The notes under the pieces: generated by a model
Told to the model about the DNA's origin: nothing
What the model saw: the letters and a program-made list of their open reading frames with translations, nothing else
Databases searched by the model: none
NCBI GenBank assembly: GCA_043228905.1
Contig: JBHGNT010000014.1
Coordinates: 12,710,001-12,774,000, forward strand
DNA from: Azolla caroliniana
Lineage: Eukaryota; Plantae; Polypodiophyta
Length of the DNA stretch: 64,000 bases
Direction: 5' to 3'
In this document: piece by piece, positions 15,344-48,536 of the stretch
Layout: every line of letters starts with the position of its first letter
How positions within the stretch are numbered: the first letter of the stretch is position 1
Program-made: the position numbers and the translations under genes

Positions 15344-16158
15344 TGTTGTAGTGTAGGTTGCACACTATGTGGAAATTATATTTTTGTCCCTCCGGATAGA
15401 GAATGGAGTGCTCGGTGAGAACCGGAAGAAAACGGCATACCGGCAAGGAGGAAAACGGCATACCGGAAAGGAGGAAAACGGCATACCGGCAAGGAAGAGC
15501 CGGATAAAGAGACATAAATGTAAAAAGAAAAGGAAATACTCACTACTGCGTAGGGCGTGATTCAAACTCTGCACCTCCACGTTGACAAACCCCAACCTTA
15601 CCATTACATTAACTTATCTTAAGTATTTTGAATATAGATTTAATACGTATAAGACCTTTATGTATGCATACCTTTATTAAAAGGTAAATCGTGTATTTTT
15701 TTAATATATGAAAAGGAAAAAACACGAGACACTAAAAATAACTCATGCACATCTAGCGTGCATGAGCCCTATACTTAGGAAATAAAAAAGCATCACATGC
15801 ACATTTAGTGGACATGAACACTTTTTGTAAAAAAAAAAAAAAAGCATGAAGCCATGCTTAGCTCTTCCTTCCTTATATAAGGAGGAGAGAAATATATAAA
15901 GGGTTGTTGATTATTTGGATTAAGTATTAATCAATAAAAAAAATTATTCGTGGGATTCACGATTTATACATCTACTTCTCTCTTAACACCCTAAGTACCA
16001 ATTAATATAGTATACTCGTGTGATTCACGAGTTTCTTATCTTTCTCTTCGCTATGTATTCATAATTAATCTCTATCTCACGAACTTCTTTCTCCTAGTCC
16101 AAGACCTCTGTGGTTCCCACCCGACTCACGCAACGATCCGGAGCCGAAAGGCACGACA
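15344..16158 (+). repeat. Gypsy-A 5' LTR
   Basis: Direct repeat of 21826-22640. Contains three copies of a ~21-bp unit AAAACGGCATACCGGMAAGGA and a TATATAA box near 15874. Confidence 0.95.
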
Positions 16159-16162
16159 CAGT

Positions 16163-16179
16163 TGGTGAACCCGACGTGA
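16163..16179 (+). promoter_or_regulatory. Primer binding site, tRNA-Trp
   Basis: TGGTGAACCCGACGTGA is the complement of the plant tRNA-Trp 3' end (...TCACGTCGGGTTCACCA). It lies 4 nt from the LTR. Confidence 0.85.
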
Positions 16180-16181
16180 AG

Positions 16182-18236
16182 ATGGGTGGCAAGGAGATGG
16201 AGGCTCAACAAGCTAACAATATGATGGCGATGTTCGAACGGATGCTTCAAGAACAACGCACGATGTCGGAGATTTCGGCATCAGTAGAGCGGCTCGTGCA
16301 ACGCAACGGGCAATTTAATGGTAAGGATGTGTCGCGATATTTGCAGGACTTCAAGGCGGAGATGCTCCGGTGCCGGGCTTCGGAAGGACTGCAAGTGACA
16401 TCCTTTAACCGGGTGGCGACCGACGGGCTTCAAGGGAGTATCCACGGGTTGCAACAACAAAATCCGACGTGGGAAGCATTCGAAGAGGTGTTAAAGACCA
16501 CGTTTGCCATCGAGGACTCCTCCAAGGCAACGCGGAGGGGATTCGAGGATTGGGTGGAAACGTCAGGTAAAGGGCTAAAGGTCCTCGAAGTGTTTTCGAC
16601 ATTCGAAAGTCGGTTCGGGAGGTTGTCCGCGAGAGATCAAACTATTCTTGCACCGGACAAAGTCATCATGTTTTTGCGAGCTGTGGACGTCCGGGACCGG
16701 AAAGATCTCGGAGTGCTTCTTGAGGACACGACCACCGAAAGCGGCCTCACCGAAACATGGGAAAGCGTGCGGGATATCGTCGCGCGGTACACGAAGAGGG
16801 GGCAATGGCTTGCCAACGAAGAAAAGAGGGTTTCGGAACCGATTCCGAAACCGAGAACGGGACTGGAAGACCATCAACCGAGGGCTCGGGAGATTACGGC
16901 CGAGAAGGGAGTCGACGCGTCTACGGTGGAGCAGCTGCTGAAGGAGATGGAGAATCTAAAGATCGCGATGGTGAAGAAGTCGGATGACCGCCCCACAAGC
17001 TCCAAATATACGGATCGACGGTGCATATGGTGCGATAGCGCTGAACACGATCGGAGGGATTGCGACGACCATAAGGAGGCGCTACGACGGGATCTCATCT
17101 ACTACGAGGGAAACCGGATTCATTCGATGGACTCTCGGAAGCCACTCCGACCGAACTTCCGGAAAGGCGGCATGAAGAAGGTGCTCGAGGAGGAGTTAGC
17201 GGCAAGAAGCAACTATGCGACAACCGTGGGAATATGTGTCGGGGAGTCAACGGGAGCGAAGGCGTCTTTCTGGCCGGAGGTGCTAGGAAACACCGAGAAA
17301 ACCGACTCCAACGATATCCGAAACACTGCGGAAGGCGTCCGGGAAGCTACGGGATGGGAGTGCCCTGTCGACAAGAATAGCATATACGCCCTGTGTCAAT
17401 TACATGAGGTGTATGTGGACGAGAAACGACGGCGCACGGAGGATGCGGCCGGACCATCGAAGATACCGGAAAGCTGGAACTCCGGAGGTAAGGGAAAAGA
17501 AAAGGCGACTCCGGCATTCAAGCTCGCCTCGGACATAGAACAACAAACCGACTTGAAAAGAGTGTTCGAGGAAAGAATCTTGGATAGCCGGGTAGATTTT
17601 TCGTTGCGGGAACTACTCGGAATAGCGAAGAAGGAGTTTCACGATCTTCTCGTGGATCTCGTGAAAAGGAAGAGACAAAGTACGGAGGAAAATGCTCCAA
17701 GGGTGAATGCAAATACCGTTTCAATGAACGACACCGAAGTGGAAGGCGAAATTCCGAACTCCCACTATACAAGGCCACACTGGGCACGTGCGACTACGGA
17801 GACTCCGGTCCGAATCGGCAACATCAAAGAACCCGTGCTAGCATTGATTGATCACGGATCGGAGATCAACTTGATGTCCAAGGAGTTCTACCGAAAGGGG
17901 AAGTGGCCTATAAACACCAACCATGGATGGAAGATTCGGGCAGCCACGAAAACGACAGAAGACCTATTTGCGGCTTGTCCGGATGTGACGGTAAAGATCG
18001 GGGATGTCGAAATTGACCAAAATTTCTTTGTGCAGGATGAGGTTTCACATTCTGTCATCCTCGGCCAACCCTTTATCACGGCTTCACGGATGGAGACGAA
18101 GGTGCTCGATAGTGGTGCGGCTTTTGCGCGAATTCGGAGCCAAAACGGAGGGAAATCCGTCCAATTCCTAACGGTGCCGGCAAATCACGAAAGGAACAAG
18201 AGGGAACTCTTGTCCCAAGTGAGAATGGATTTTTAA
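16182..18236 (+). CDS. gag-pro: Gypsy-A Gag-protease ORF
   Basis: First ATG after the PBS. Zinc knuckle CIWCDSAEHDRRDC; aspartic protease LIDHGSEINL...ILGQPF; ends MDF*. Confidence 0.9.
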   Translation: MGGKEMEAQQANNMMAMFERMLQEQRTMSEISASVERLVQRNGQFNGKDVSRYLQDFKAEMLRCRASEGLQVTSFNRVATDGLQGSIHGLQQQNPTWEAFEEVLKTTFAIEDSSKATRRGFEDWVETSGKGLKVLEVFSTFESRFGRLSARDQTILAPDKVIMFLRAVDVRDRKDLGVLLEDTTTESGLTETWESVRDIVARYTKRGQWLANEEKRVSEPIPKPRTGLEDHQPRAREITAEKGVDASTVEQLLKEMENLKIAMVKKSDDRPTSSKYTDRRCIWCDSAEHDRRDCDDHKEALRRDLIYYEGNRIHSMDSRKPLRPNFRKGGMKKVLEEELAARSNYATTVGICVGESTGAKASFWPEVLGNTEKTDSNDIRNTAEGVREATGWECPVDKNSIYALCQLHEVYVDEKRRRTEDAAGPSKIPESWNSGGKGKEKATPAFKLASDIEQQTDLKRVFEERILDSRVDFSLRELLGIAKKEFHDLLVDLVKRKRQSTEENAPRVNANTVSMNDTEVEGEIPNSHYTRPHWARATTETPVRIGNIKEPVLALIDHGSEINLMSKEFYRKGKWPINTNHGWKIRAATKTTEDLFAACPDVTVKIGDVEIDQNFFVQDEVSHSVILGQPFITASRMETKVLDSGAAFARIRSQNGGKSVQFLTVPANHERNKRELLSQVRMDF

Positions 18237-18290
18237 AGCGGACTGTTGCAGAGTGGGGAAGTGATAGTCCGAGAAGCCCTGATACCCCAC
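18227..18290 (+). promoter_or_regulatory. Predicted -1 ribosomal frameshift signal (G_GAU_UUU plus pseudoknot)
   Basis: Slippery heptamer 18227-18233, 6-nt spacer, stem GGACTGTTGC/GTGATAGTCC, loop GTGGGG complementary to CCCCAC (18285-18290). pol lies in the -1 frame. Confidence 0.75.
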
Positions 18291-18550
18291 ACAGGAAGAA
18301 AACTCTCGGAGCAAAACAAGTACGAATCGGCCCGGATGGGGCATCTACGTACACGGCCGTAACCGGAGGAATGAAGAAACAATACCGACAAGTGGAGGAT
18401 AAGTTACGATCGGCATCAATAATAAAAGAAGACGAAGAAATCGTGGGAGTGATCGAGGAAGTGTTCTATGGGAATACACTACAACGGCTTGAAGAGCTTG
18501 CGGAAGATAAAAGCCAAGGGAACCGGGTAGTCCCGGTGGAATAGGTCGAG

Positions 18551-21500
18551 ATGTACGAGATCGTTGCGAAAATGGGGCCGGATGCGCTCCGCAAAGAAGA
18601 AGCAATGGTAAGTACGAAATACAAGACCGTGGAGAAGAAGGTGAAACCGGCCGCGGGACCACTACCCGCCGATAGTGAACAAAAGAAGAAAGAAGTCTCG
18701 GGAGATCCGACACTTCGGAAGTCCGTGGATATCGGACATGCCTTCACAGATGAGACCCGGAAGAAACTTCGGATCGGTGGAGGTGGGTTCCTCTTACAAG
18801 AAGAAGAAAAACGGTTTCGAGAGATGTTGGAGCAACATGGCAAAGCATTCGCGTTCACATCGAGGGAGATCGGATGCATTGATCCAAAGATAGTGGAGCC
18901 GATGGTGATTTTCATGATTGATCATGTATCGTGGAACCTGAAGCCGATTCCGGTGCCACGGGCGCATATTCCGAAAGTCATCGACTTGCCCAAGGAGAAG
19001 GTGGCGATGGGGATTCTAGAGCCATCAAGTGCTCCGTACTCAAATCGATGGTTTACGGTTCCGAAGAAAAATGGGTCACTCCGATTCATCCAAGACTTGC
19101 AGCCGGTGAACAAGGTCACGATCCGGAACTCGGGAGTCGATCCGATAGTGGACGAATTCGCGGAAGCTTTTGCCGGACGTGCGATATACTCCATCGGGGA
19201 CCTATACTCGGGGTATGACCAATTCCAACTAGCCGTGGAGAGCCGAGACATCACTACCATGCGGACACCGATAGGACTAGTTCGAATGTGCACACTACCA
19301 CAAGGAGCGACAAACTCGGTTGCACATATGATGAACGCGATGAACAAGGTGCTTCGAGATTGCATCCCGGAGATAATGATGCCGTTTCTAGATGACATTC
19401 CGATGAAAGGATGCGCGGTGGAAGAAAAAGATGAGACTATGGATGATCGGGGATGCCGAAAGTTCGTGGTCGACCATATTCATGATTGCGAGAAAGTGTT
19501 GCGAAAGCTAGAAGATGTGCACCTAACACTTTCCGGGGAGAAATCGGCATTCGGGCAAGAAGAAATATTGGTGGTCGGACATCTATGTGGACCCTACGGC
19601 CGAAGACCGTCACCAACAAAGATCGATGCGATTCAAGCTATGAAGGAAGTATGTGAGTCAACATCGGAAGTCCGAAGGTTTCTGGGTGCGTGTGCATTCT
19701 ATCACATATGGATTCCGCACTATGCACATATAGCGGACCCGCTCTATCACTTGTTGCGGAAAGGTAAGAAATTCGAGTGGAAACCGGAACACACTAAAGC
19801 CATGAGGAAGCTCAAGAAGACACTATGGAGGGCGGAATCACTTAAGAAGCCAAGCTACGAGCGGCCAATCATAGTAACGGTTGATACAAGTCCAACCGGT
19901 ATCGGGTGGGTCATCAATCAAGCCGACTCAGATGGTTCGCGGTATCCGATCCGATTTGGAGCAAAGGTCCTCAACGAAAGGCAACGCGGATATGCACAAG
20001 TCAAAAGAGAATTGTGGGGAGTCGTGTCGGCGATAAAATCGGATCGGGATTATTTGATCGGAGCTGAAGTGGTGATCGAGACGGATTGTCTTCCGATACT
20101 CGGGATGATGCGGTGTTGTACGATACCGGATGTGGCTATGCTAAGGTGGATTGCATATGTCAAGTCACTTAATCCGGAGGTTCGACACATCTCGGGGAAG
20201 GACAACGCGGTAGCGGACATGTTATCGAGGGCGCGGTTTGAAGACGACATAACCGAATCAGATAATGAAGAAGTTTCCGAAGACTACTTCACGTCAGAAC
20301 ACATATGCCGAGTGAACGTGATCCGAGAATTCCGGGAAGAAGAATACGAGGGGGAAACCTTGATGATCGGGAAGATGCTACAAGAGGTCGAGGATTCAAC
20401 CAATGATAAAGAAAGGAGAGCCGAGATCCGAAGGAAGAAGAGGCAAGTCCAAAAGTTCTTCTTGGAAAACGGTTTAATATGGAGGGCGCCGAAAAGACCG
20501 GATGGGATACCACTTCGAGTAGTCGGGACGAAAGAGCAACGAAACCGGATAATGTCTGAGTTCCACGAATCCGATTGGGCTGGACATCGAGGAACATGGG
20601 CAACTTTTGTGAAAATCAAGCAAAGATATTGGTGGAAGAACATGTATAAAGATGTCGCGGAGTTCACAGAAAGCTGCGAGAAATGTCAAGTCTACTCCGG
20701 GGTCCGACACCGAGATGAGCTGCATCCGACATTCTCACCGACAATCAACTTCAATTGGATGGTCGACATTGTAGCTATGCCGACCGGGATTGGACAAAAG
20801 AAATACTTGGTGTTAGCTCGAGAAGATCTCACAAACCAAGTTGAAGGTCGAGCGCTTCGGAGGAAAACGTGTGCCGCAGTGTGCCAATTTCTTTTGGAAG
20901 AAGTGTTTTGTAGGTACGGCTGCGTAGGACAAGTGATTGCGGACCGGGGAGAACTCGACTCGGACAAAGCTAGGGGATTCTTCGCCAAACATGGAGTTCG
21001 GTTAACGTTGACAACGGCGTACAATCCGAAGGCCAACGGGAAGATCGAACGAGGACATAGTCCGATCGTGAAAGCACTTGCGAAGGCATGCGACGGAAGG
21101 GTGAAGGATTGGCCACAAATGCTTCCGTATGCACTATGGGCGGATCGGACGACGCATAGCTCCGTGACCGGTTACATGCCGGCAGAACTCATGACCGGAC
21201 AAGCACCGGTAATGCCAACGGAAACCGCAATCGCGACATGGACAATACTACCGTGGAAGGAAGAGATGAGCCGGGAAGAACTACTAGCGGTCCGGATACG
21301 ACAACTGGAGGGAAGACCGAAAGATGTAGCGGAAGCGTCACGCCGACAACAAGAAGCACGGTTCCGGAACAAAAGCCGGTTCGACACAAAGCACCGACTA
21401 CGACCGAGGAGGATTGAAGAAGGAGATTGGGTGATCGTCTATGATAGTAGCTTGGACCATCAACATACAACGATGCGGAAATTCGCGAAAAGGTGGTTCG

Positions 21501-21838
21501 GGCCGTACGAGGTTCGGAAGGTCTTCGACAACGGGACGTACCGACTGTCCGAGTTGGATGGAACAATACTACGAGTGCCTATAGCCGGGAAGCGGGTGAA
21601 GATTTTCAAGAAGCGGACCGACGACAAACCTTATGTGATCCAAGTCGAGGCCGACAACGAGGAGCAATCGGACGAAGACCACAATGATGCGGGAAGCGAA
21701 GAAAGTGGATTACAACTCATAGTCGACATAAGGGGAGAATCGGAGGGAGCTTCGGATGAAGTCGGATACGAAGAATCAAGAACTTCGGCACATACCGGAG
21801 GATGTGCGGGTTTGGAGGGGGCGAGTGTCGTAGTGTAG
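18551..21838 (+). CDS. pol: Gypsy-A Pol (RT-RNaseH-integrase); the -1 frame extends back to 18227 except for one TAG at 18542
   Basis: RT LPQG and FLDD; RNase H VDTS/ETDC/ADMLSR; integrase HHCC, D-D-E core, WFGPY; no chromodomain. Confidence 0.93.
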   Translation: MYEIVAKMGPDALRKEEAMVSTKYKTVEKKVKPAAGPLPADSEQKKKEVSGDPTLRKSVDIGHAFTDETRKKLRIGGGGFLLQEEEKRFREMLEQHGKAFAFTSREIGCIDPKIVEPMVIFMIDHVSWNLKPIPVPRAHIPKVIDLPKEKVAMGILEPSSAPYSNRWFTVPKKNGSLRFIQDLQPVNKVTIRNSGVDPIVDEFAEAFAGRAIYSIGDLYSGYDQFQLAVESRDITTMRTPIGLVRMCTLPQGATNSVAHMMNAMNKVLRDCIPEIMMPFLDDIPMKGCAVEEKDETMDDRGCRKFVVDHIHDCEKVLRKLEDVHLTLSGEKSAFGQEEILVVGHLCGPYGRRPSPTKIDAIQAMKEVCESTSEVRRFLGACAFYHIWIPHYAHIADPLYHLLRKGKKFEWKPEHTKAMRKLKKTLWRAESLKKPSYERPIIVTVDTSPTGIGWVINQADSDGSRYPIRFGAKVLNERQRGYAQVKRELWGVVSAIKSDRDYLIGAEVVIETDCLPILGMMRCCTIPDVAMLRWIAYVKSLNPEVRHISGKDNAVADMLSRARFEDDITESDNEEVSEDYFTSEHICRVNVIREFREEEYEGETLMIGKMLQEVEDSTNDKERRAEIRRKKRQVQKFFLENGLIWRAPKRPDGIPLRVVGTKEQRNRIMSEFHESDWAGHRGTWATFVKIKQRYWWKNMYKDVAEFTESCEKCQVYSGVRHRDELHPTFSPTINFNWMVDIVAMPTGIGQKKYLVLAREDLTNQVEGRALRRKTCAAVCQFLLEEVFCRYGCVGQVIADRGELDSDKARGFFAKHGVRLTLTTAYNPKANGKIERGHSPIVKALAKACDGRVKDWPQMLPYALWADRTTHSSVTGYMPAELMTGQAPVMPTETAIATWTILPWKEEMSREELLAVRIRQLEGRPKDVAEASRRQQEARFRNKSRFDTKHRLRPRRIEEGDWVIVYDSSLDHQHTTMRKFAKRWFGPYEVRKVFDNGTYRLSELDGTILRVPIAGKRVKIFKKRTDDKPYVIQVEADNEEQSDEDHNDAGSEESGLQLIVDIRGESEGASDEVGYEESRTSAHTGGCAGLEGASVVV

Positions 21839-22640
21839 GTTGCACACTATGTGGAAATTATATTTTTGTCCCTCCGGATAGAGAATGGAGTGCTCGGTGA
21901 GAACCGGAAGAAAACGGCATACCGGCAAGGAGGAAAACGGCATACCGGAAAGGAGGAAAACGGCATACCGGCAAGGAAGAGCCGGATAAAGAGACATAAA
22001 TGTAAAAAGAAAAGGAAATACTCACTACTGCGCAGGGCGTGATTTGAACTCTGCACCTCCACGTTGACAAACCCCAACCTTACCATTACATTAACTTATC
22101 TTAAGTGTTTTAAATATAGATTTAATACATATAAGACCTTTATTTATGCATACCTTTATTAAAAGGTAAATCGTGTATTTTTTTAATATATGAAAAGGAA
22201 AAAACACGAGACACTAAAAATAACTCATGCACATCTAGCGTGCATGAGCCCTATACTTAGGAAATAAAAAAGCATCACATGCACATTTAGTGGACATGAA
22301 CACTTTTTGTAAAAAAAAAAAAGAAGCATGAAGCCATGCTTAGCTCTTCCTTCCTTATATAAGGAGGAGAGAAATATATAAAGGGTTGTTGATTATTTGG
22401 ATTAAGTATTAATCAATAAAAAAAATTATTCGTGGGATTCACGATTTATACATCTACTTCTCTCTTAACACCCTAAGTACCAATTAATATAGTATACTCG
22501 TGTGATTCACGAGTTTCTTATCTTTCTCTTCGCTATTTATTCATAATTAATCTCTATCTCACGAACTTCTTTCTCCTAGTCCAAGACCTCTGTGGTTCCC
22601 ACCCGACTCACGCAACGATCCGGAGCCGAAAGGCACGACA
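21826..22640 (+). repeat. Gypsy-A 3' LTR
   Basis: TGTCGT...ACGACA, direct repeat of the 5' LTR. Confidence 0.95.
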
Positions 22641-24429
22641 ACGTGTCCAATAACACCGTGATAAAACTTGCCAAATTTGAGAAATATAACTCCAAATCTA
22701 ACAAGCAATCAGAGATTGTATAAAAGGATTCAAGTATTACCTTCCATTTGAATTGTACAAAAGAAGCAATTGCCCCCCATTGCTAGTCCATGAGGCTTTA
22801 GAGCTAATCCCAAAGGCAATCCCCCAATCAAATCTCTCCAAATGAAGATTTTTGTTACAAGTGGCAATTTAGAATGCCAACTACGTTTTGAGATTTGCCA
22901 TCACCCATGATAAAATTTGTGTATTTTCCATCCTTCTTCGGCCTTAGATGGTAGTCATCCAAGAGAATCAACAAAACGATGATACAAATGATTAGTAGTT
23001 ACTTTTAATGGTGTCTGTCCCCGTAAACACCAATCAATCAACGATTATTCTCCTGTTTGTAGAGGTAAAGGACTTTGCATCAAGGCAATATTTTGTAGTT
23101 GTTCCCAGATAAACACATAATTAGGTGGGATGCGTAATACTTGTAACACTTCAACAAACTCCAAAATTCTTTGTGATGGAGCCTCAACTATATCTCCCAC
23201 CACTTTTTGATCCCCAAACAAAAAAAAAGGTTAAACGAAGAGCACAATCTCTCCTTTCCAGGCCAACATAATAACCAAGAAGACACAAGTAACTCTTTTT
23301 GCAAATAGTTACAATCTTCTCTACAATATTGTGGTGGTCACATGGACCACACCTAGATTAGGCCCCTACCAAGCCCCATGCACCACACATAGACCACACC
23401 CAAATTAGGCCCCTACCAAGCCTCATGCACCACACCCAAACTAGGCCCCCACCAAGCCCCATAATTAGTAGAGCTAATTGGAGCGGGAGAACACCCTCCA
23501 CGCTAAGAGAGAGTCTATAAAATGTAACTTGAGACATAATGAAAAGGGGGCTATTCTTGAGAGCATTTCACATCTTGAGCATTTCACATCTTGGTGGAGA
23601 AGACGGGCCAAGCCACCCCAACTCACGACCCCAACAACGCCCGCCACGATGCAACACGACAACAACGACGGCAACGCAAACTCGATGAATCCGGGATTCC
23701 TACAACACAATCAAGGACACCAGCCCACATCGCCAATCGACCAACTGGTTCAATCTCTGTCCAACATCATTTTACAAGTTAACCATACTAACCAAGCCAT
23801 GTTGTCCTTTCTTTCAGCACGATCCGAGCCACAACAAAATCTCCCGGACTCTCGAGTTCGCCCAAAACCGTTCTCCGGCCTACCATCGGAAGATGTCCTC
23901 TCTTGGCTGGATCATTTCGAAATGGTGGCCAGTTACCACCAGTGGCCACACCCTCGGAAGGCAATGGAGATGAAGACACTCCTCGAGAATATCGCGGCAA
24001 CATGGCTTGTACAACAACCCGAAGAGACACGCAACGACTGGGATCTGTTACGAGCAGCCATGATTCGGAATTTTGCTCATCAAGACTCCCGCCAGACGGC
24101 CCTACAACAACTTGAGTCAATTACCCAACAACCACGCGAACCCATCACCCAGTTCGCGGTTCGTTTTGTGCAGATCCTACGCCGGGCTGACGCCAACATG
24201 TCGGAGGACATGAAGTTGTTTTTTTTCTGGTCGCGTATACGACATGACCTCCGCCGCCGTGTACGCGATCAAGGCCCGACGACACTACACGAAGCCATCC
24301 TCACTGCCCAACGCATCGAAGCTGCAGACGCGCACGACATGCACACACCAGGTAATCTCAGTCATGATCATACAAACACTATACCAGCCGTCACTCCCAT
24401 GGACATCGACATCCAGAACGCGCAATTAC

Positions 24430-29809: not shown

Positions 29810-32093
29810 ATTACGTGCCAAGCGTGCATTGCCCGAACGAGACAGCCAGGGACGCCCCAAATGTTTCTACTACAACAACTATGGCCACATTCGGCGTCAC
29901 TACCGAAAGTGGCAGAATCACCAACAGAAGCAGAACGTCCAATTGGCTGACGCTGCCTCCCTCTCTGAGCTCCCGGAAAACTAATGCGCGGGGTGCCGTA
30001 GGGAGAGCCGCCCCCGCACGTCCACGTCTCCACGTCCTCAACTTCTCCCGTTTCTCCCACGATCGAGCCGCCCCCGCACGTCCACGCCTCCACTTCATCA
30101 ACTTCGCCCGTTTGTACCACAATCGCCCGCCTCCAGCACACGACCCAAGAAGTTCTCCTCGACTCCGGCAGCAGCATCTCTTCCATCAGCGTAGATTTAG
30201 TCACCCAATTACAACTTCCCACGAGCCACGCACCGCCCATTAAAATCCTCTTCGGCGACCAACAACGGGTGTACCACTCACATACGCAAGTCAGGTGCAT
30301 GCTCACCATTAGTTCCGCCCAGATCCACCATCGTTTCTACGTCCTCCCGCGCCAGTTGTTCCCAATCACCTTGGGATGTGATTGGTTCCTCCATAGTCGA
30401 GCCTGTCTCGATTTCTACGCACAACAACTCATCCTCCCAAATCACATTCCGATCACGCTCTTCACTACTCCGCGGGATACCACCCACGTCAGCAACACAC
30501 AATACCTGATATCACCGGCGGAGCGCATCAACGACATCAGACGGCTCCTCGCCACCTTTCCCTCGTTGTCTACACCACCTGTAAAACCTCCCTCGGTCCG
30601 TTTTCCGATTCACCACACGATTCCTACAGGCAACACCCGCCCCATCAACGCAGCTCCCCGACGTCGCTCGCCTCTCGACCACGAGCGCATCGACAACACC
30701 GTCAAAACTATGCTCCAACAAGGGATTATCACACCTTCCAAGAGCGAGTGGATCTCGGAGCCACACATGGTAAAGAAAGGGGATGGTTCTTACCGCTTTT
30801 GTGTCGACTTCCGACAACTGAACCATGTCACCACCCATGACCGATATCCTCTCCCTCGTATCGATGACCTCCTCGACCAGCTTGGCAAATCAAAGTACTT
30901 CACCTCCCTCGATCTAGCCTCGGGATATTGGCAGATCCCGATGAATCCTCACGATGCCCACAAAACTGCATTCCGCACTAGGAAAGGCATTTTTCAGTTC
31001 ACACGGATGCCCTTTGGTCTATCTGATGCGGGGAGCACATTCCAGCGAATGGCTAATGCCATCTTCGATGATCTCATCACCCGCCGTGTCGTCATCGTCT
31101 ATCTAGACGATATTCTGGTACATACAAGCACTTGGGCAGAACACCTTCAAGTCCTTCGGGAGGTCCTAACTTGTGTTCAACGCTATCGATTGTAGCTGCA
31201 ATGGAAGAAGTGCCGATGGGGTAGTACGTTGTCGTGTTATTACGCAAGTGCGTGTGGAAACGAGGCGGGACCGCGGGGGTCTCGAACCAAAGAGCAAGCG
31301 AGGGAGGAGAGAGAGAGAGAACCGGCTACGCAGGACCGGGGATACACAGGGACACGGCCCTTCAGCACGGAGAACGCGAACGAACACCGACACAGACAGA
31401 TGCGAATGACTAAATATATATATTAAGAATGGCTAAACACGACTACAACCCTCGATGGGGCACAGGTTGGTTACAACCGAGCAGGCCGGCGAACAGATGC
31501 CGATGCCTGTTCGCTTCGACGCACAAAGGGGTAGCCGGTCGGAGGTGCTGCCGGAAGCACTCGGGCGTTCCTCGAAACAGCGCGAGCCTCCTCGGAACCC
31601 TGCACAGAAAAGCTAAGGAGCTCGAGAAGGAAGGAAACAGAGAGCGAAGCGTCCAGAAACGGTCCGACAGCACTTCGTCCTCTCCGCCCCCCCAGATCCC
31701 TGGAACAGCTCTTTCCCGCTCTTATATAGTCCGACGAGCAGGCCGTCATGTCAGCTTTATTCCCTGTCCCTTTCGAACAGGGATCCGCTCCGTTCTTCAC
31801 GCATCCGCGTAGTTACGCCGCCGACTCGTGCCGTCCCTTAGCTCGCGCGCGCGCCCTAAAAGACTGTTCGCGCGGTCTTTGTCTCCACTCGTGTTAGGGC
31901 CCGTTCCTGCCGATTATCCTCCTAACTCGCCTCTATGTTCGACTTGGAGCGTGCGCGCGTGAGGAACCGGTTCCCACGCCTTGGTCTGCCGATTCCGCTT
32001 ATGGACGGTTTTCTTCACGACATCCGCCCCCACCTAACCGCGCATCCTCCGGTATGCGCCAAGAGAGTTGGGACGGAGAAAACCGGCCCGTCT

Positions 32094-35000
32094 TCATTCC
32101 TCGCCCGTCTGTTCTTCCTCGTTTTCGGATCGTTCGTCACTGCTGACCAGGAGAGCCGGGTCTGGCTCGTCGTCGTGTCGCTTCTTGAACGCTTTGATCC
32201 GCTTCCCCGCAACCGGTATCGCCATTCTCGTGCCGTCGAGTTCCGCCAGGTGATATGTCCCGTTGTCATTGGCGCTCCGTACCACGTAAGGCCCGAACCA
32301 CCTTCGTGCGAACTTCCGTGTAGCTCGGTGCTGGTTGTCGAGGCTGCTGTCGTAGACGAGCACCCAGTCACCTTCTTCGATTTTCTTCGGTCGGAGCCGA
32401 TGCGTTCGGTCGAACCTGGCTTTGTTCTTTTTCCTCGCCACCCGGAGCTTCTCCGCAGCCAGTTCCACGTCCTCCGGTCTCCGCTCGAGCTGTCGTATGC
32501 GCGCGGCCAACAACTCCTCCCGGCTCATCTCGTCCCTCCAGTCGACCGTTGCCCACGAGGAGATCGTCCGTTCCATCGGCATGATCGGCTTCTGGCCGAA
32601 CATGAGCTCCGTCGGCATATACCCAGTTACCGAACTGTGCGTGGTCCGGTCTGCCCACAAAGCATAAGGTAGCAGCCCCGGCCAGTTACCGACTCGGCCT
32701 CCGCATGCCCGAACCAACGCCTTGACGATCGGTCCGTGTCCGCGCTCCACCTTTCCATTCGCCTCCGGATTGTACGCAGTGGTGAGCGAGAGCTTAACTC
32801 CGAGCCGGTCGAACAGCTCCGCGGCTTCTTCGGCGTCCAACTCCCCTCGGTCAGCCACGATCTTCCCGACGCACCCGTACCGGCATATCACGTCCTCGAT
32901 TAGGAACCGGCATACGGCCGCGGTCGTTTTGTTCGGAAGGGCCCGGCCTTCCACCTGGTTCGTCAGATCCTCCCGCGCTAGGACCAGGTACCGCATCTGT
33001 CCTACCCCCATTGGCATCGTCACCAGATCTACCATCCATTTGAAGTGGATGGTCGGAGGGTACGTGGGGTGAAGCTCGTCCCGATGTCGGACTATGGAGT
33101 GCATCTGACAGCTCTCGCAAGTTGTCACGAACCGATGCACGTCCTGGTACTGCCCCGGCCACCAATACTTCCCCTTTAGTTTCTCAAACGTAGCCCATGT
33201 CCCACGGTGTCCAGCCCAAGGGCTGTCGTGGTAGGCCGTCAGCAGCTCCTCCCGTTCTACCTTCATCGCCACCACCCGGAGCGGAGCGCCGTCCCTCTTC
33301 TTCGGGTGCTTCCATAGATAGCCATCCCGCAGAAAGAACCGGTACGCTTTCTTCCGGATCCGGTTGGCCTCGTCCTTCGTCCATGACGCATCGGGCGTCA
33401 TTGTCTTCAAAAACCCACCGATCTGCAGCCACTCCCCGTCGTACTTGCTCGCGTCGAAGTCGTTAAGCGCCGGAGTGCTTGTTCCGTCGGTTGTTACATA
33501 CGCAGTCTCGAAGAAGTCCACGCCGACCTCTTCGTCCTCCGAAACCATGCCGCCCTCGTCATCGAATCTCGCCCTTGAAAGCATGTCGGCCATGGCGTTG
33601 TCTTTCCCGGAAATGTGTCGTATTTCCGGGTCCAGGGACTTGATGTACGCTATCCACCTGAGCATTGCCAGGTCCGGCGTCGCGCATCCGGAAACCATGC
33701 CGAGAATTGGCATGCAATCCGTCTCTATGATTACCTCCGTCCCGATCAGATAGTCCTTGTCGGCCTTTACCGCCGAAACGATACCCCAGAGTTCGCGTTT
33801 AACCTGGGCGTATCCTCGCTGCCGTTCACTGAGGACCTTCGCGCCGAATCGGATCGGAAACCGATTGCCGTCCTCGTCTCCTTGGTTGACGACCCACCCG
33901 ATTCCGGTCGGACTCGTGTCAACCGTTATGTACACTGGGGTGCCCTTCCGGTAGACGGCCTTTCGGAGCGCCGGTGCTGCCGAAAGAGCCTCCTTCAGCT
34001 TCCGGACCGACTCCGTGTGCTTGTCTAGCCATTCGAATCTTCGCCCTTTCTTCAATAATCCGTACAGCGGCTCCGCGACGTGCGCGTAATGCGGGATCCA
34101 TATGTGGTAGAAGGCGCATGCTCCCAAGAATCTTCGTACTTCCGTGACCGAGCTGCATTCAGGCTTCATCGCGGAGATGGCTTCTATCTTTGCCGGAGAC
34201 GGTTTCCGGCCATATGGCCCACATAAATGTCCGACCACCATGATTTCCGACTGCCCGAACGCTGACTTCTCCCCCGAGAAGGTGAGCCTCGCATCCTCTA
34301 GCCTTTGCAGCACCTTCTCGCAGTTGTCGATGTGCGTCACCACGAATCGCCGGCATCCGTCCGGCCCGATCGTCTCGTCCTTCTCTTCTACCGGGCATCC
34401 CTTGATCGGGATGTCGTCTAGAAACGGCATGGTGATGTCCGGGATGCAGTCCCTCAGCACCTTGTTCATTGCATTCACCATGTGGGCCACCGAGTTGGTC
34501 CCTCCTTGCGGCAGCGTGCACATCCGCACTAGGCCGAGGGGAGTTCGCATCGTCGTAATGTCTCTGCTCTCCACGGCTAGCTGGAACTGGTCGTACCCTG
34601 AATATAGATCACCGACCGAGTAAATCGACCTTCCGGCGAAGGCCTCCGCGAACTCGTCTATGGTCGGTCCGATCCCTGCGTTCCGAATGGTCACCCTATT
34701 GACCGGTTGCAGGTCCTGAATGAAGCGCAATGATCCGTTTTTCTTTGGTACCGTAAACCACCGGTTCGAGTACGGGGCGCTCGACGGCTCGAGAATGCCC
34801 ATAACAACTTTCTGCTTCAACAGCTCCATCAACTTCGGGATGTGAGCTCTTGGAACCGGAATTGGCTTGAGATTCCACGGTACATGCGGTACTGTGAATA
34901 TCACCATCGGCTCTACGATCGTCGGGTCTACGCACCCGATTTCCTCCGGTGAGAATGCGAAGGCTTTCCCGTGCCTTCCGAGCATCCTCCGAAACCGGTC

Positions 35001-35582
35001 TTCCTCCACCGGCAGTAGGAACCCGCCCCCACCGATCTTCAGCTCGCGGAGCGTCTCGTTGGTGAAGGTGTGTCCTATGCAGGCCGGATCTCGTAAGCTG
35101 GGGTCCGATGCAACCCCTTTGATTCGGGATTCGCTGCCCTCCGGTAAGGGCGCCGCAACTGGCCTCACCTTCCGGTCCACAGTCTTGTACTTGGTGCTAA
35201 CTCGGGCCGTCCGTTCCGACTCGAGCCCTCGACCGAAGTCCGCGATGACTTCGTACATTTCTTCGGAACATACCGGTATCGTCCGGTCTTCGTTAAGGTC
35301 TTCTTCGACTACCTTCTCCAGCATTCCCAAGGTGTCGTCGAAGGAGACTGCCTCCACGGCTCCGTTGATTTCTTCGTCAGGGCCGAGAACTCCGCACGCT
35401 CGAAGTCTCCCCTCCGTCTTTGTTTTCTCTCGGCCGGCGATGCCGACCATCGCACATGCTCCGCTGCCGGAGAAGCAAATTTTCCTACCTATTGTACACG
35501 GTTTTATCGTACAGATGTGGGGTCTTCCCGGAGCATCCGGACTGTCGCGGCCCCACGCCTTGGCAGTCCTCTCTAAAAATCC
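32094..35582 (-). CDS. pol: Gypsy-D Pol (RT-RH-INT), open from the slippery site
   Basis: 1118-aa ORF closely similar to Gypsy-A Pol. The -1 frame is stop-free from 35582 to the ATG at 35450 (GFLERTAKAWGRDSPDAPGRPH...). Confidence 0.93.
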   Translation of the reverse strand, partial: GFLERTAKAWGRDSPDAPGRPHICTIKPCTIGRKICFSGSGACAMVGIAGREKTKTEGRLRACGVLGPDEEINGAVEAVSFDDTLGMLEKVVEEDLNEDRTIPVCSEEMYEVIADFGRGLESERTARVSTKYKTVDRKVRPVAAPLPEGSESRIKGVASDPSLRDPACIGHTFTNETLRELKIGGGGFLLPVEEDRFRRMLGRHGKAFAFSPEEIGCVDPTIVEPMVIFTVPHVPWNLKPIPVPRAHIPKLMELLKQKVVMGILEPSSAPYSNRWFTVPKKNGSLRFIQDLQPVNRVTIRNAGIGPTIDEFAEAFAGRSIYSVGDLYSGYDQFQLAVESRDITTMRTPLGLVRMCTLPQGGTNSVAHMVNAMNKVLRDCIPDITMPFLDDIPIKGCPVEEKDETIGPDGCRRFVVTHIDNCEKVLQRLEDARLTFSGEKSAFGQSEIMVVGHLCGPYGRKPSPAKIEAISAMKPECSSVTEVRRFLGACAFYHIWIPHYAHVAEPLYGLLKKGRRFEWLDKHTESVRKLKEALSAAPALRKAVYRKGTPVYITVDTSPTGIGWVVNQGDEDGNRFPIRFGAKVLSERQRGYAQVKRELWGIVSAVKADKDYLIGTEVIIETDCMPILGMVSGCATPDLAMLRWIAYIKSLDPEIRHISGKDNAMADMLSRARFDDEGGMVSEDEEVGVDFFETAYVTTDGTSTPALNDFDASKYDGEWLQIGGFLKTMTPDASWTKDEANRIRKKAYRFFLRDGYLWKHPKKRDGAPLRVVAMKVEREELLTAYHDSPWAGHRGTWATFEKLKGKYWWPGQYQDVHRFVTTCESCQMHSIVRHRDELHPTYPPTIHFKWMVDLVTMPMGVGQMRYLVLAREDLTNQVEGRALPNKTTAAVCRFLIEDVICRYGCVGKIVADRGELDAEEAAELFDRLGVKLSLTTAYNPEANGKVERGHGPIVKALVRACGGRVGNWPGLLPYALWADRTTHSSVTGYMPTELMFGQKPIMPMERTISSWATVDWRDEMSREELLAARIRQLERRPEDVELAAEKLRVARKKNKARFDRTHRLRPKKIEEGDWVLVYDSSLDNQHRATRKFARRWFGPYVVRSANDNGTYHLAELDGTRMAIPVAGKRIKAFKKRHDDEPDPALLVSSDERSENEEEQTGEE
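35517..35582 (-). promoter_or_regulatory. Predicted -1 frameshift signal (G_GAU_UUU_UAG plus pseudoknot)
   Basis: GGATTTT, 6-nt spacer, GGACTG/CAGTCC stem, loop GTGGGG complementary to downstream CCCCAC. Confidence 0.75.
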
Positions 35583-37690
35583 TCTCGGTTTTCGGAACCG
35601 AGGGAGTCGCGGTTACGTTCGTGGTTCAGCCTTACCGTCAGAAACTGGACCGAATGGCGCCCGTCTTGGCTTTTGACCCTTGCGTAGGCCGAACCATTGT
35701 CCAGCACCTTGGTCTCCATTCGCGCCGCCGTGATGTACGGCTCTCCCAGTATGACCGGATGCGAAGACGTCTCCTGCACGAAGAAGTGCTGGTCAATCTC
35801 GACGTCGCCGATCTTGACTCGCACATTCGGACAGGCCCCGTGCAGTTCCTCGGTGGCGCGCGTTGCTGCCCTTATTTTCCACCCGTGCTTGGTGTTGATC
35901 GGCCATTTGCCCTTCTTATAGAAGTCCATGGACATCAAATTGATCTCCGATCCGTGGTCCACCAAAGCTATCACCGGTTCCTGGACATCGCCGATCTTCA
36001 CCGGGGTTTCCGTGGTCGCTCGGGCCCAGTGTGGTCTCGAATAGTGGCTTTCCGCCCACTCGTCTCCCAGCGCCATGTCGTCTAGGTGCGTCGTCCGCAC
36101 TTCCACCGGTCTTTCCGGTTCTGTCTCCGTTGACAGCCTCTTCCGTTTCACCAAGTCCACGATGGAGTCGTGGAACTCCTTCTTGGCGATTCCCAGCACC
36201 TCTCGTAACGACAGCTCCACCTTGCTGTCGAGGATCCGTTCCTCCAGGACCTTTCGTAAGTCCGTGGTCCTTTCTATCTCCGTCCCCAGACGGTACCCGC
36301 CCTTCTGGGGTTTATCTTGCGTACCGGCCCCGCCGGCTTCGTCCCGTCGTGGCCCGGACCGGGTCTCGTATCGTTGTGAGGGCCCGGTCGTCCCGGGTTT
36401 CCCCACCCGCTTCTCTTCTACCAGAGCCTCGTAGTTCCGGCAAGCGGCTTCCACGAAGCCCGTCTTTTCCTCGACCGGGTCGCTCCACCCGGTCATCTCC
36501 CGTACCCGTTTCTTCGCACGGTCCGATTCCTCCCTTTTTAGCTCTGCACCGGCAAGGCCTTCCAGCATCGTCGGCCAGAATCCGGCTTTGCTTTCCCTTC
36601 GGGCCTCGCCGCCCCCGACTCGAATGCCGGCCGACGCCGAGTAGTGGACGGTTTCCGCGTGTCGGGCCGCCGCCTCTTCCATCACCCTTTTCATACCACC
36701 TCGCCCGTCGTTTCGGCTCAGGGCCCTTCGGGTGTCGCTGGCATGCACCCGTCCTTCCCACAGGTACACCACCCTGTCCCTCAGCGCCTCCGCGAAGTCG
36801 CCGCAGTCCTTCCGAATGTGGCCGACTTCATCACACCACATGCACCTGTTTCCTGCCGCCGGCCGTCGGTCACGAGCCGGTTCGCCACCTTCTCTTCGGG
36901 CTTGCGCGATTTGGAGGTCCTTTACCGCCCTCGTCAATTCCTCCAGCGCCGCTCCTCCGGTTGAGCCTCTGACTACGCCGGTCGAAGCCGAACCGGTTTC
37001 CAACCACTCTCGGGTCTCTTCCTTTCGCACCTGTGGCGCTGGTTCGAACTTCCTTGCTGCGACCGAGCCCGACCCGGTTACCCCGTTATCCGCCCATTCT
37101 CGCCGTTTGTCGAAACGGCCACAGACTTTCTTGACAGCCGCCCAGTCGGTAGTGAGCCCGTCTTCGGTTTCCAGCAAGAGGCCCACTTGCTCCCGATCCC
37201 GCTCGTCGACCGACTTGACAAACAGCAAGACCCGGCTCGTGTCCAGGATGGTTCGGTCGAGCGCCGAAAGGCGCGCAAAGTTTTCCTAAACTCCCGGAGG
37301 AGTGCCGACGCGTTCCTTCCCTTCCCCGGGGACTCCACCCATTCCATGAACCTTCGCTTCGAAAGCCGGAGCGCGTCGTCCAGCCCGTATTTCTCTAGGA
37401 GCCGACCTTCGAACTCCTCCCAGGTACGGCTCTCCGCCCGCACCTCGAGCACCTCCGCATGGATGCTCGGCATTGCCACTCGGGGAAATCCGGCAAGACG
37501 CCTTTCTTCCGGAATGTCCCGCATCAGCATTTCTGCACCGTAGGACGCCAGATACTTCGTGGCATCCCTCCCATCGAACCGGCCGATCGTGCCGACGACC
37601 GCCTCGATAGCTCTGTCGAGGGCACTGGTGCCCTCGCGCGCGTTTACCATCCGATCCACGGCCGAAGCCATGGCCTCTGCAAGATCCGAC
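35573..37690 (-). pseudogene. gag-pro: Gypsy-D Gag-protease with one frameshift near 37280
   Basis: Two overlapping ORFs (37078-37725 and 35573-37228) together align with Gypsy-A Gag-PR. CMWCDEVGHIRKDC; LVDHGSEINL; ends EDF*. Start is approximate. Confidence 0.85.
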
Positions 37691-40600
37691 CCCCTCATCT
37701 TCTGCTCTTCTGCCGCCTCTTTCACGTCGGGTTCACCAAAGATGTCGTGTTATTACGCAAGTGCGTGTGGAAACGAGGCGGGACCGCGGGGGTCTCGAAC
37801 CAAAGAGCAAGCGAGGGAGGAGAGAGAGAGAGAACCGGCTACGCAGGACCGGGGATACAGAGGGACACGGCCCTTCAGCACGGAGAACGCGAACGAACAC
37901 CGACACAGACAGATGCGAATGACTAAATATATATATTAAGAATGGCTAAACACGACTACAACCCTCGATGGGGCACAGGTTGGTTACAACCGAGCAGGCC
38001 GGCGAACAGATGCCGATGCCTGTTCGCTTCGACGCACAAAGGGGTAGCCGGTCGGAGGTGCTGCCGGAAGCACTCGGGCGTTCCTCGAAACAGCGCGAGC
38101 CTCCTCGGAACCCTGCACAGAAAAGCTAAGGAGCTCGAGAAGGAAGGAAACAGAGAGCGAAGCGTCCAGAAACGGTCCGACAGCACTTCGTCCTCTCCGC
38201 CCCCCCAGATCCCTGCAACAGCTCTTTCCCGCTCTTATATAGTCCGACGAGCAGGCCGTCATGTCAGCTTTATTCCCTGTCCCTTTCGAACAGGGATCCG
38301 CTCCGTTCTTCACGCATCCGCGTAGTTACGCCGCCGACTCGTGCCGTCCCTTAGCTCGCGCGCGCGCCCTAAAAGACTGTTCGCGCGGTCTTTGTCTCCA
38401 CTCGTGTTAGGGCCCGTTCCTGCCGATTATCCTCCTAACTCGCCTCTATGTTCGACTTGGAGCGTGCGCGCGTGAGGAACCGGTTCCCACGCCTTGGTCT
38501 GCCGATTCCGCTTATGGACGGTTTTCTTCACGACAACGTGCCTCCGCTTCCTTGGGTACGTCATCTCCTCCGACGGAATACAAATGGACCCGGAGAAGAC
38601 AGAAGCAGTCCAAAAATTCCCACGCCCCACCACAGTCAAGCAGCTTCAACGCTTCCTCGGCCTCCTCACGTTCTCTCTTCGTTTCATCTCACGGCTAGCC
38701 GACCTGTCAGCCCCACTACGCGCGCTCCTACAAAAAGACGCACCCTTCCTGTGGACCGAAGCCTGCGAATCCAGCTTCCTGCAGCTCAAGAGAACACTCC
38801 AAGCCTCTGACCTCCTGGCCCACCCTGATTTCACGAAGCCTTTCCATCTGCAGACGGATGCCTCCAATGTCGGCCTTGGTGCGGTCCTGCTCCAATCCGA
38901 CGACAACGACCAACTCCGCCCGATTGCCTACATCAGTCGGTCACTTACCAAAGCCGAACAAAATTACTCGACAACTGAAAAAGAGTTCCTCGCCATCGTC
39001 TGGGCATTCCATCGTTTCCACCCATACCTTCACGGATCAAATACATCAGTCGAAACCGACCATCGGCCATTGCTCTCCCTCATAAAGAAGGCTCATCCAC
39101 CCGGCCGCTTACTTCGTTGGGTTTTGGCGCTACAGGATTACACATTCACTCTGCGCTATCGCCATGGTCCACAAAACATCGTCACCGATGGATTATCCCA
39201 CATATCCTTTCAGGCGAACCAGATAACCTCCAACACAATCGATTTCCCCATATCCTCGTCCCAAATGGCCAACATGCAACAACACGACAAACAAATCCAA
39301 GATATCTGCCACCGCCTACGAGCTGAACCGACATCATCCCTCACCAAGCAATTCATGATCCAGGATAATGTCCTACTTTTTTGTCAAGTAGGCAAAGAAC
39401 CCTGAGTCTACATGCCTGAGCAACTACGCCAGTCTTACCTTCGTTTCTTCCACGATCACCCGTTGTCCGGCCACTTGGGTTTTCATAAGGTGCTCGACAA
39501 AATTCGTCGCAAATTCTATTGGCCTGGGCTACGCCACGAGGTCGCCTCCTACATCAAAGCATGCAACTTATGTCAGGCCATCAAATCACCTCAAGTGGCT
39601 CAAGGCCTCTTACATCCGATACAAGTTCAAGCTCCATTTGAAATCGTCGGATGGGACATTATGGGCCCCTTTCCCGAGTCACAAGGAGGGAACAAATTCA
39701 TCCTCGTCATCACCGAGTACTTGACGCGTTGGGCTGAGACGGCCGCTATCCCAGATGCAAAGGCTATGACCATCGCCTCCAAACTATTGGAGAAAATCAT
39801 CTTCCCCCACGGTTGCCCACTCCAAATCTTGTCCGATCGAGGACCCCAGTTCAACGGTGAGCTCCTACGCCTCGTTTCAACACAACTAGGAATCCAACAG
39901 TTATTCACGTCACCCTACCATCCCCAAACGAATGGGTTGACGGAGCGCCTCAATCAAACCTTAAAACAACAAATCTCAGCCTACATCGATCTGCTGCACT
40001 CAACCTGGGACCGAATCTTGCCCTTCGTTACGCATGCCTACAACACAACTGTGCAAGCCTCTACCCGCATTAGCCCATTTCGGGCCCTTTACGGAAGGGA
40101 CCCGCGCTTACCCCCAAAAGTGGCAGTCCCGCAACCAACCACACGACTCCACGCTGACGCAGTGTCTTGGTGGTCCCACCTACAACAACTCCAGCCCCTC
40201 CTCCGCAAAGCCATCACGAGCAACCTGCACCAGGCACAACTACGCCAAAAACGACAACACGATATAGGCCGTGTCGACCATCAATACCACGTCGGTGACA
40301 AAGTCCTCGTCTACTTCCCCATCCGTCGCCGTGGTCTCAGCGAATCGCTCATGCACCGATGGATCGGTCCCTTCGAAGTTCAAAAGCAGATACGCGACAC
40401 TACATACCTGCTCCGCCGCGCCTCCAACAACCGCTCTACCTTTGCTCACCAGTCTCGCATGAAGCCCTTCCATCAACTACCACCGCCCCCGCCCACACTC
40501 ATGCCTACGCCCACGCCCGTGTCATCCCCCCGTCTGGAACCGTCGTCCACGCCTCGTCGCGCTTCGACTGCACAGTAACTTTTTTTTTTACAAGGGGGAA

Positions 40601-48175: not shown

Positions 48176-48238
<63 letters not shown>

Positions 48239-48536
48239 TAAGACACTGAGAATACGCAAGGTAAAGTATATTAACAAAGGAGAAAGACTCAACATTGTAC
48301 AAGGTGGGAGGAGGGTGCTTTATATAGTCACCCTCTCTCTTCATTAACTACAAGACTCATGGAGCATGGGGAATGTGAAAGCTCATAAGTTATGTGTCAT
48401 AGAATATGATTCTATGACTCATACTAAATGCTAGAATACAAAGTGGTGACATAATGGTGACTCTTGACCATTGGAGTGTCTATTCACTCTCAAGGTGAGT
48501 TCACACACTAGACCAAGTTGAGCTTGATTCTCAACA
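43031..48536 (-). mobile_element. Copia-E: decayed Ty1/Copia element (Ale-like, tentative) inserted in the LINE
   Basis: LTRs at 48119-48536 (5') and 43031-43417 (3') with variable (GA)n. TSD TATAT/CATAT (1 mismatch). PBS TGGTATCAGAG directly adjacent; PPT GAGGGGGCG. Frameshifted Gag, WFVDSGAS, HFDVWGP, MDVKNAFL, YVDD, ADIFTKAL. Confidence 0.92.

Follow-up and report, generated by a model that had tools for sequence, protein, structure and literature searches.

Predicted pseudoknot-driven frameshifting between protease and reverse transcriptase in an LTR retrotransposon lineage of seed-free plants, with a possible switch from -1 to -2 in a young clade

In this study we examined the junction between protease and reverse transcriptase (RT) in a lineage of Ty3/gypsy LTR retrotransposons, and our results point to ribosomal frameshifting as the way in which the two are joined. 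Our main reading, to which we give a probability of roughly 0.85, is that the main lineage carries a -1 cassette with a pseudoknot and that one young clade uses -2 slippage on the same pseudoknot. The part that concerns programmed -1 frameshifting between protease and RT in the main lineage is the one we would hold with the greatest confidence. The starting material was a window, by which we mean the whole stretch of 64,000 nt that was analysed, from Azolla caroliniana (GCA_043228905.1, contig JBHGNT010000014.1, positions 12,710,001-12,774,000, forward strand). It contains two elements with the cassette, A and D, whose features are listed in Table 1.

Table 1. Coordinates of elements A and D within the window, with the predicted RNA features of their junctions.
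Feature	Position	Strand	Remarks
Element A, whole	15344-22640	+	ACGT target duplication at both flanks
Element A, 5' LTR (TG...CA)	15344..16158	+	ACGT target duplication before the LTR
Element A, primer-binding site	16163..16179	+	complement of the 3' end of host tRNA-Trp
Element A, ORF1: Gag (DUF4100) and retropepsin-fold protease, 684 aa	16182..18236	+	Pfam DUF4100; ends Asp-Phe-stop
Element A, slippery heptamer GGATTTT (G_GAU_UUU)	18227..18233	+	ORF1 stop TAA at 18234-18236
Element A, predicted H-type pseudoknot	18240..18290	+	covariation, 33 cassettes
Element A, stem 1 arms	18240-18248 with 18262-18270	+	6-nt spacer after heptamer
Element A, stem 2	GTGGGG 18253-18258 with CCCCAC 18285-18290	+	
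Element A, pol (linker-RT-RNase H-integrase), -1 frame	18227..21838	+	stop at 18542-18544 breaks this copy
Element A, 3' LTR	21826..22640	+	purine-rich tract just before
Element D, whole	31230-38535	-	flanked by ACGT
Element D, 5' LTR	37743..38535	-	target duplication ACGT
Element D, primer-binding site (tRNA-Trp)	37722..37738	-	
Element D, ORF1 Gag-protease	35573..37720	-	ends Asp-Phe-stop
Element D, cassette	35517..35582	-	heptamer 35582-35576, TAG, 6-nt spacer, pseudoknot to 35517
Element D, stem 1 arms	one from 35569, other to 35539	-	
Element D, stem 2	GTGGGG 35556-35551 with CCCCAC 35522-35517	-	
Element D, pol, -1 frame	32094..35582	-	1162 codons open from heptamer
Element D, 3' LTR	31230..32022	-	

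A preliminary description of this DNA had placed G GAT TTT TA(A/G) at the end of the Gag-protease ORF in both elements, and the coordinates given there were exact; the motif GGATTTTTAR occurs once per strand in the 64 kb, in these two cassettes only. The same description had assigned RT, RNase H and integrase (RT-RH-INT) to the -1 frame, which holds for both elements. The frame is fully open in D, and in A it runs for 105 codons to a single TAG and is open again after it. This TAG is private to the copy in the window: a sense codon stands at that place in 29 of 30 family-A loci, and the thirtieth is the window copy itself. In 23 of the 30 loci the -1 frame of family A is open up to the end of the locus. 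The heptamer is present in all 30 loci examined in the own genome for family A and in 30/30 for family D, where a stop follows directly in 29. Each family has at least 150 near-identical copies in its own genome, and the LTR pairs agree at 805 of 815 positions in A and at 791 of 793 in D. The D copy has a frame break in gag, with the last 570 codons of ORF1 open. Element D is inserted in the RT of another Gypsy element (window 23328-40869, LTRs 23328-23597 and 40600-40869), which also carries a nested Copia at about 24430-29810. A further Copia on the minus strand (window 43031-48537) has LTRs that are about 99% identical and several in-frame stops.

As far as sequence can tell, the cassette is a real, lineage-wide feature. 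A search of the own genome for the pattern of heptamer, stop and stem gave 3,613 exact matches, and the reversed-pattern control gave none. We also scanned metagenome contigs, analysing the best 80 of 160 relatives; these come mostly from one assembly series and are therefore not independent hosts. A slippery heptamer lies at the ORF1 stop or at most five codons from it in 71 of the 80, in the forms G_GAU_UUY, G_GGU_UUU and G_GUU_UUY, and the nine contigs in which none was found are mostly truncated or prematurely stopped copies. The conservation in other copies that the preliminary description would need is thus present. Among the 61 informative contigs, which have both heptamer and RT, a conserved downstream ORF with RT lies in the -1 frame in 57 and has no universal Met; two of the others belong to the -2 clade and two are degenerate copies. 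At the protein level, 58 of the 120 homologs among the matches listed end in Asp-Phe-stop. Another 28 end in PL or PF, mostly five residues past an Asp-Phe or Gly-Phe, and among the distant cluster representatives several have DF, GF or NF as their last residues. The named hosts of these homologs are Physcomitrium, Riccia and Adiantum, and no relatives were found in the viral contigs searched. In 5 of the 33 cassettes described below (L150, L151, L160, L163 and L165) the ORF1 stop lies five codons past the heptamer, inside stem 1, so a stop adjoining the heptamer is not required. One distant relative, P0158 (1374 aa, ENA contig), encodes Gag-protease, linker and RT as a single open frame and keeps the Asp-Phe at the junction; it may come from a lineage with one ORF or be a copy that has mutated.

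The evidence for a predicted H-type pseudoknot downstream of the heptamer comes from 189 heptamer-bearing loci, which were clustered at 85% into 33 cassettes and aligned with plain MAFFT; all were picked for having the heptamer, and three degenerate ones were kept. Pairing reaches 91.9% in stem 1 (9 bp), where 7 of the 9 pairs show two-sided changes, and 79.2% in stem 2 (6 bp), where 5 of the 6 do, against only 38-45% when the registers are slid. None of 500 shuffles, which ignore relatedness, reached the covariation score of the two stems. The preliminary description had drawn stem 1 at a 6-nt spacer, where it is indeed found, but too short: it has 8-10 bp in most families, with 6 contiguous bp in D. 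It had also argued for stem 2 from the CCCCAC that is kept at a differing offset in A and D. The offsets do differ (58 and 60 nt from the heptamer G), but as a two-copy argument this is weak because CCCCAC stands for Pro-His in the pol frame of A and D alike. The pairing of GTGGGG with CCCCAC is instead supported by covariation across families, with compensatory sets such as GCGAGA/UCUCGC, UGAGGG/CCCUCA and ACAGGG/CCCUGU.

Stem 2 is rich in runs of G and C. In an alignment-free test, duplexes of a loop with its own partner have -10.1 kcal/mol compared with -7.9 for swapped partners (0/5000), and in 26 of the 33 cassettes the own partner segment beats every segment further downstream for pairing with the loop. 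For the 13 loops without GGGG, the own partner ranks among the top five in 9 and poorly in 4 (ranks 9, 14, 16 and 29). Minimum free energy folding recovers stem 1 in 8 of 9 tested cassettes, together with alternative hairpins downstream. The spacer to stem 1 has a constant length in all 33 cassettes (6 nt, or 5 nt in the -2 clade) while flanking lengths vary, and a 6-nt spacer puts the predicted structure within the 5-9 nt at which the 3' structure of -1 signals is expected. When 22 cassette codons were compared with RT, synonymous divergence was lower and amino-acid divergence higher in the cassette in 9/9 family pairs, although these pairs share members and the compared stretch is only 22 codons long. 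Synonymous divergence was 0.12-0.36 in the cassette and 0.43-0.83 in RT, apart from one pair with almost no suppression (0.69 vs 0.73). The combination of low synonymous and high amino-acid divergence argues for a constraint on the RNA.

We suggest that the ribosome would pause at the pseudoknot 6 nt downstream of the heptamer, and that tandem tRNA slippage at G_GAU_UUU would move a minority of ribosomes back by one base into the RT frame. The products would be abundant Gag-protease (Gag-PR) and a minor full polyprotein Gag-PR-RT-RH-IN, in a ratio that we infer. This layout, as proposed in the preliminary description, finds support in the conservation, the covariation and the reading frames. 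In 11 of the 33 cassettes there is a stop in the pol frame 1-3 codons before the heptamer, and any shift would therefore be confined to the heptamer. Past the heptamer, the pol-frame linker is open for about 120-155 codons to the RT motif, also upstream of the commonest Met, and this upstream part has a dN/dS of 0.14-0.46 in the 7 pairs where it was computable.

One young clade, with 94 pattern matches in the own genome and none for the control, departs from this arrangement and probably uses structure-stimulated -2 frameshifting. It has AG_GUU_UUU, the same predicted pseudoknot at a 5-nt spacer and an open pol in the -2 frame. The two divergent families L141 and L147 represent it among our cassettes and form one clade (100/100). 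Their ORF1 ends in CAG GUU UUU (G/U)AC UAG with five bases from the U-run to stem 1, and their pol, which has more than 1,090 open codons, lies in the -2 (= +1) frame and has the homologous junction peptide. Thirty loci were examined in the own genome: 29 of them have RT in the -2/+1 frame, 29 meet a stop in the -1 frame after a single codon, and 20 keep the -2 frame open up to the locus end. Ten full elements were taken from among the best-scoring copies, which biases the sample towards young ones; their LTRs are 99.5-100% identical, they have NCGN flanks and a Trp primer site, and eight of them have 1154 open pol codons. The RT of L141 and L147 differs with a dN/dS of 0.06; such strong purifying selection means that pol must be expressed. 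In engineered constructs the optimal spacer for -2 slippage in vitro is 1-2 nt shorter than that for -1 (available text of PMC3458567), and RG_GUU_UUU is the -2 site of arteriviruses (PMC5644247, PMC11818727, in the portions available). We consider -2 slippage likely in the clade because it combines the arterivirus -2 site with a shorter spacer of the kind that favours -2.

Aligned with the -1 families, this clade has its U-run, pseudoknot and pol frame in the same columns, and the incoming frame alone is off by one base. A shift of one base in the incoming ORF1 frame, with no change in the register of U-run, pseudoknot and pol frame, may be how the clade arose, and tRNA-Phe would then land on the same UUU in both types. 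L157 offers a natural contrast, with G_GUU_UUC, a 6-nt spacer and pol in -1. The clade is nested among the -1 families when the tree is rooted on a distant single-ORF relative (90/91). In an AU test on 28 rows, from which cassettes without 250 stop-free RT codons were left out, a tree that separates all the -1 families from the -2 clade was not rejected (p-AU 0.173), and the direction of the switch from -1 to -2 is therefore not proven. We lean towards the wider picture of a seed-free-plant LTR lineage that relies on a pseudoknot-driven frameshift and in which a recently active clade switched from -1 to -2 by the incoming frame alone.

For this clade only, it is questionable but conceivable that tRNA-Phe slips by +1, since +1 and -2 slips end in the same frame. 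Slippage by +1 at UUU_C is known (available parts of PMC5644247), and UUU is followed by U in 8 of the 94 copies. In the other 86 a G follows, which would leave tRNA-Phe on UUG with poor re-pairing, whereas after a -2 slip the A-site would re-pair fully on UUU and the U-run would keep its register to the pseudoknot. The identity of the clade site with the arterivirus -2 motif also speaks against a +1 slip, and we regard this explanation as unlikely.

A very improbable alternative for the lineage as a whole is that splicing brings protease and RT together in the RNA from which pol is made, with heptamer and stems being incidental or involved in splicing control. Ogre joins protease to RT by splicing (PMC6317226, in the text available), and public gene models of the Physcomitrium, Riccia and Adiantum relatives fuse ORF1 to pol, presumably through predicted introns. 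However, the region from the heptamer on is an open and constrained reading frame and not a stop-filled spacer. No splice donor motif is common to the 10 families scanned (the commonest, an AG|GTR about 130 nt upstream, is found in 4), the public models exit ORF1 at differing residues, and removal of a 12-nt GT..AG at the -2 site would leave the reading in frame 0. The anatomy of the junction thus disfavours splicing. Four sequencing runs were mapped to 17000-19800 of the window, the single true RNA run among them bearing the label of a different organism; no RNA reads covered the junction or bridged it, a result that is neutral as regards splicing. The models of these three genera (P0001-P0130) likely join ORF1 to pol by introns invented around the frameshift. 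Ten fused ORF1-pol proteins from a search for longer proteins, all of them Riccia or Physcomitrium models, were set aside as likely spliced predictions.

We give an equally small chance to the idea that the structure serves packaging, dimerisation or protection from decay and that the frame change comes from polymerase slippage or from unstimulated slipping on the U-run. Covariation shows that a structure exists and not what its role is. The U-run is nevertheless short (3-6 U), and the distance to stem 1 is constant in 33/33 cassettes, in the very register in which stem 1 is paired, while the flanks vary. Weakest of all is separate translation of pol, by re-initiation or from a subgenomic RNA with an internal AUG: a Met does lie about 21-22 residues before the RT 'YKT' motif in most families, but at least 4 of 30 lack it (L110, L148, L150 and L169), about 100 codons upstream of it remain open and constrained in the pol frame, and separate initiation leaves the heptamer and the fixed spacer unexplained.

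Elements A and D fit the Phygy lineage by their NCGN target duplication, tRNA-Trp primer site and DUF4100 Gag. Phygy is a non-chromovirus Ty3/gypsy lineage in REXdb, whose listed marks are a 4-bp NCGN duplication and a tRNA-Trp primer (Neumann et al. 2019, PMC6317226, in the available text). The duplication is ACGT at both A and D, and NCGN also stands at the 5' flank of 10/10 elements of the -2 clade. The primer site corresponds to the 3' end of host genes called as tRNA-Trp(CCA) at all four loci scanned. The 3' motif of this tRNA has 63 matches in the genome, many of them in regularly spaced clusters (G000:C8:17796786-17823371, where the spacing is about 1.2 kb, and G000:C16:4989495-5105657); the four loci confirmed as tRNA genes lie elsewhere. 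The pol ORFs of A and D match RT, RNase H-like and integrase domains only, and no chromodomain or other extra domain was found in them (Pfam, E<=0.001). Physcomitrium predicted proteins are among the best named matches with 51-66% identity. The A and D elements share these marks with the Phygy of REXdb, but relatives of A and D also occur in liverwort and fern records, whereas supplementary file 3 of PMC6317226 gives Phygy as Physcomitrella-specific. At 7.3 kb they are just below the Phygy range of 7.7-10.0 kb, which is descriptive and from one species (PMC6317226 supplement), and the -2 clade elements have 7.9 kb. The ORF organisation of Phygy is 'ND' in supplementary file 3, and that of A and D can be resolved as GAG-PROT overlapping RT-RH-INT.

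The protease at the end of ORF1 is assigned through its modelled structure. Pfam matches are below threshold (best E 2e-4), and the sole PDB sequence match is the Ty3 Gag-Pol protease with E 0.07. An AlphaFold model (pLDDT 81) matches the Ddi1, XMRV, EIAV and HIV proteases in Foldseek, with a best E of 2e-6 to Ddi1 and XMRV, and the model thus gives the ORF1 end a predicted retroviral protease fold (retropepsin, A2-type). In place of the canonical D-[TS]-G, the active-site motif is D-H-G in 28 of 31 families, D-Q-G in 2 and D-S-G in 1; element A reads D-H-G-S (window 17850-17861, plus strand). As in the avian enzyme (available sections of PMC3185560), a 1:1 ratio to Gag might go together with an attenuated protease.

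What is new here is the frameshift joint between protease and RT, and what is known already is the split of GAG-PROT from RT-RH-INT itself. The preliminary description had called the layout unusual for plants, which stands for the joint and not for the split, known from Ogre and Retand. In the literature covered, which is the available text of the sources named here, we found neither such a PR/RT junction nor a retrotransposon with a -2 frameshift described. The available parts of the papers on Ylt1/fungal elements and RLG1 (PMC3248453, PMC7466625) and on Retand (PMC11963269) hold nothing on a frameshift junction between PR and RT. For plants, the accessible text of a 2025 review (PMC12786077) mentions cases of splicing and none of frameshifting, and DUF4100 was not mentioned in the literature searched. 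We considered a pro/pol frameshift in Skipper as a precedent, which the available text of PMC5006619 did not bear out. A 2003 survey (Gao et al.), as summarised in the portions of PMC5009743 available, found only +1 arrangements in plant retrotransposons, and the same text names phage Mu, arterivirus nsp2TF and Trichomonas vaginalis virus 1 as -2 cases.

Our reading would fill the 'ND' entry on how Phygy elements express Pol and would give plant retrotransposons a -1 signal that is stimulated by a pseudoknot. On this reading, public gene models with introns across the junction would likely be artefacts. The rule that a shorter spacer favours -2 has so far come from engineered constructs, and sister cassettes with -1 and -2 on the same pseudoknot would allow a direct test in plant ribosomes. 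If true, the clade would be a natural case of structure-stimulated -2 frameshifting for an essential polymerase, and a ready evolutionary test of the spacer-length or mRNA-tension model.

Among plant elements, Ogre and Retand are like A and D in having their break between protease and RT, so that the protease would be made with Gag. In the supplement of PMC6317226 they are the only lineages with GAG-PROT split from RT (by a spacer or stop in Ogre and a single stop in Retand), and overlapping frames are found in none of the 15 Ty3/gypsy rows. A and D differ from the intron of Ogre and the single in-frame stop of Retand by a frame change with a slippery site and a predicted pseudoknot. The alpharetroviruses provide another comparison, as A and D likewise have the protease in the Gag frame and a -1 shift into pol. 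The frameshift stimulator of alpharetroviruses is a pseudoknot, and the heptamer of RSV is A_AAU_UUA. Their protease shares the Gag frame and is made in equimolar amounts with Gag (PMC3185560), and RSV and MAV pass from gag-pro to pol by a -1 shift (PMC5009743, in both cases according to the text available). A and D belong to an unrelated lineage, have no env and use a different heptamer, and their alpharetrovirus-like layout is convergent.

The umbraviruses and dianthoviruses share the heptamer with A and D, together with a stop at or near the site. G_GAU_UUU is the slippery site of the dianthovirus RCNMV, and the likeness to dianthoviruses that had been proposed for A and D holds for this site. 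It does not extend to the stimulator, which in these viruses is a long-range pairing (available sections of PMC5009743) and in A and D a compact, local H-type pseudoknot, as predicted. The same source has G_GAU_UUU as a working -1 site in plant RNA viruses, such as pea enation mosaic virus, with G_GA as an exception. The -2 clade, finally, shares its shift site with arterivirus nsp2TF, and in both a -1 shift gives a stop. In arteriviruses the stimulator is a protein complex that binds a C-rich motif 10 nt downstream, and no RNA structure takes part (PMC5644247, in the parts available), whereas the -2 clade has a predicted pseudoknot 5 nt downstream, its stem 1 takes the position of the C-rich motif, and the shift would supply an essential polymerase. 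Judged from its sequence, the site of the clade would work like the arterivirus site, but the clade is not a member of that system.
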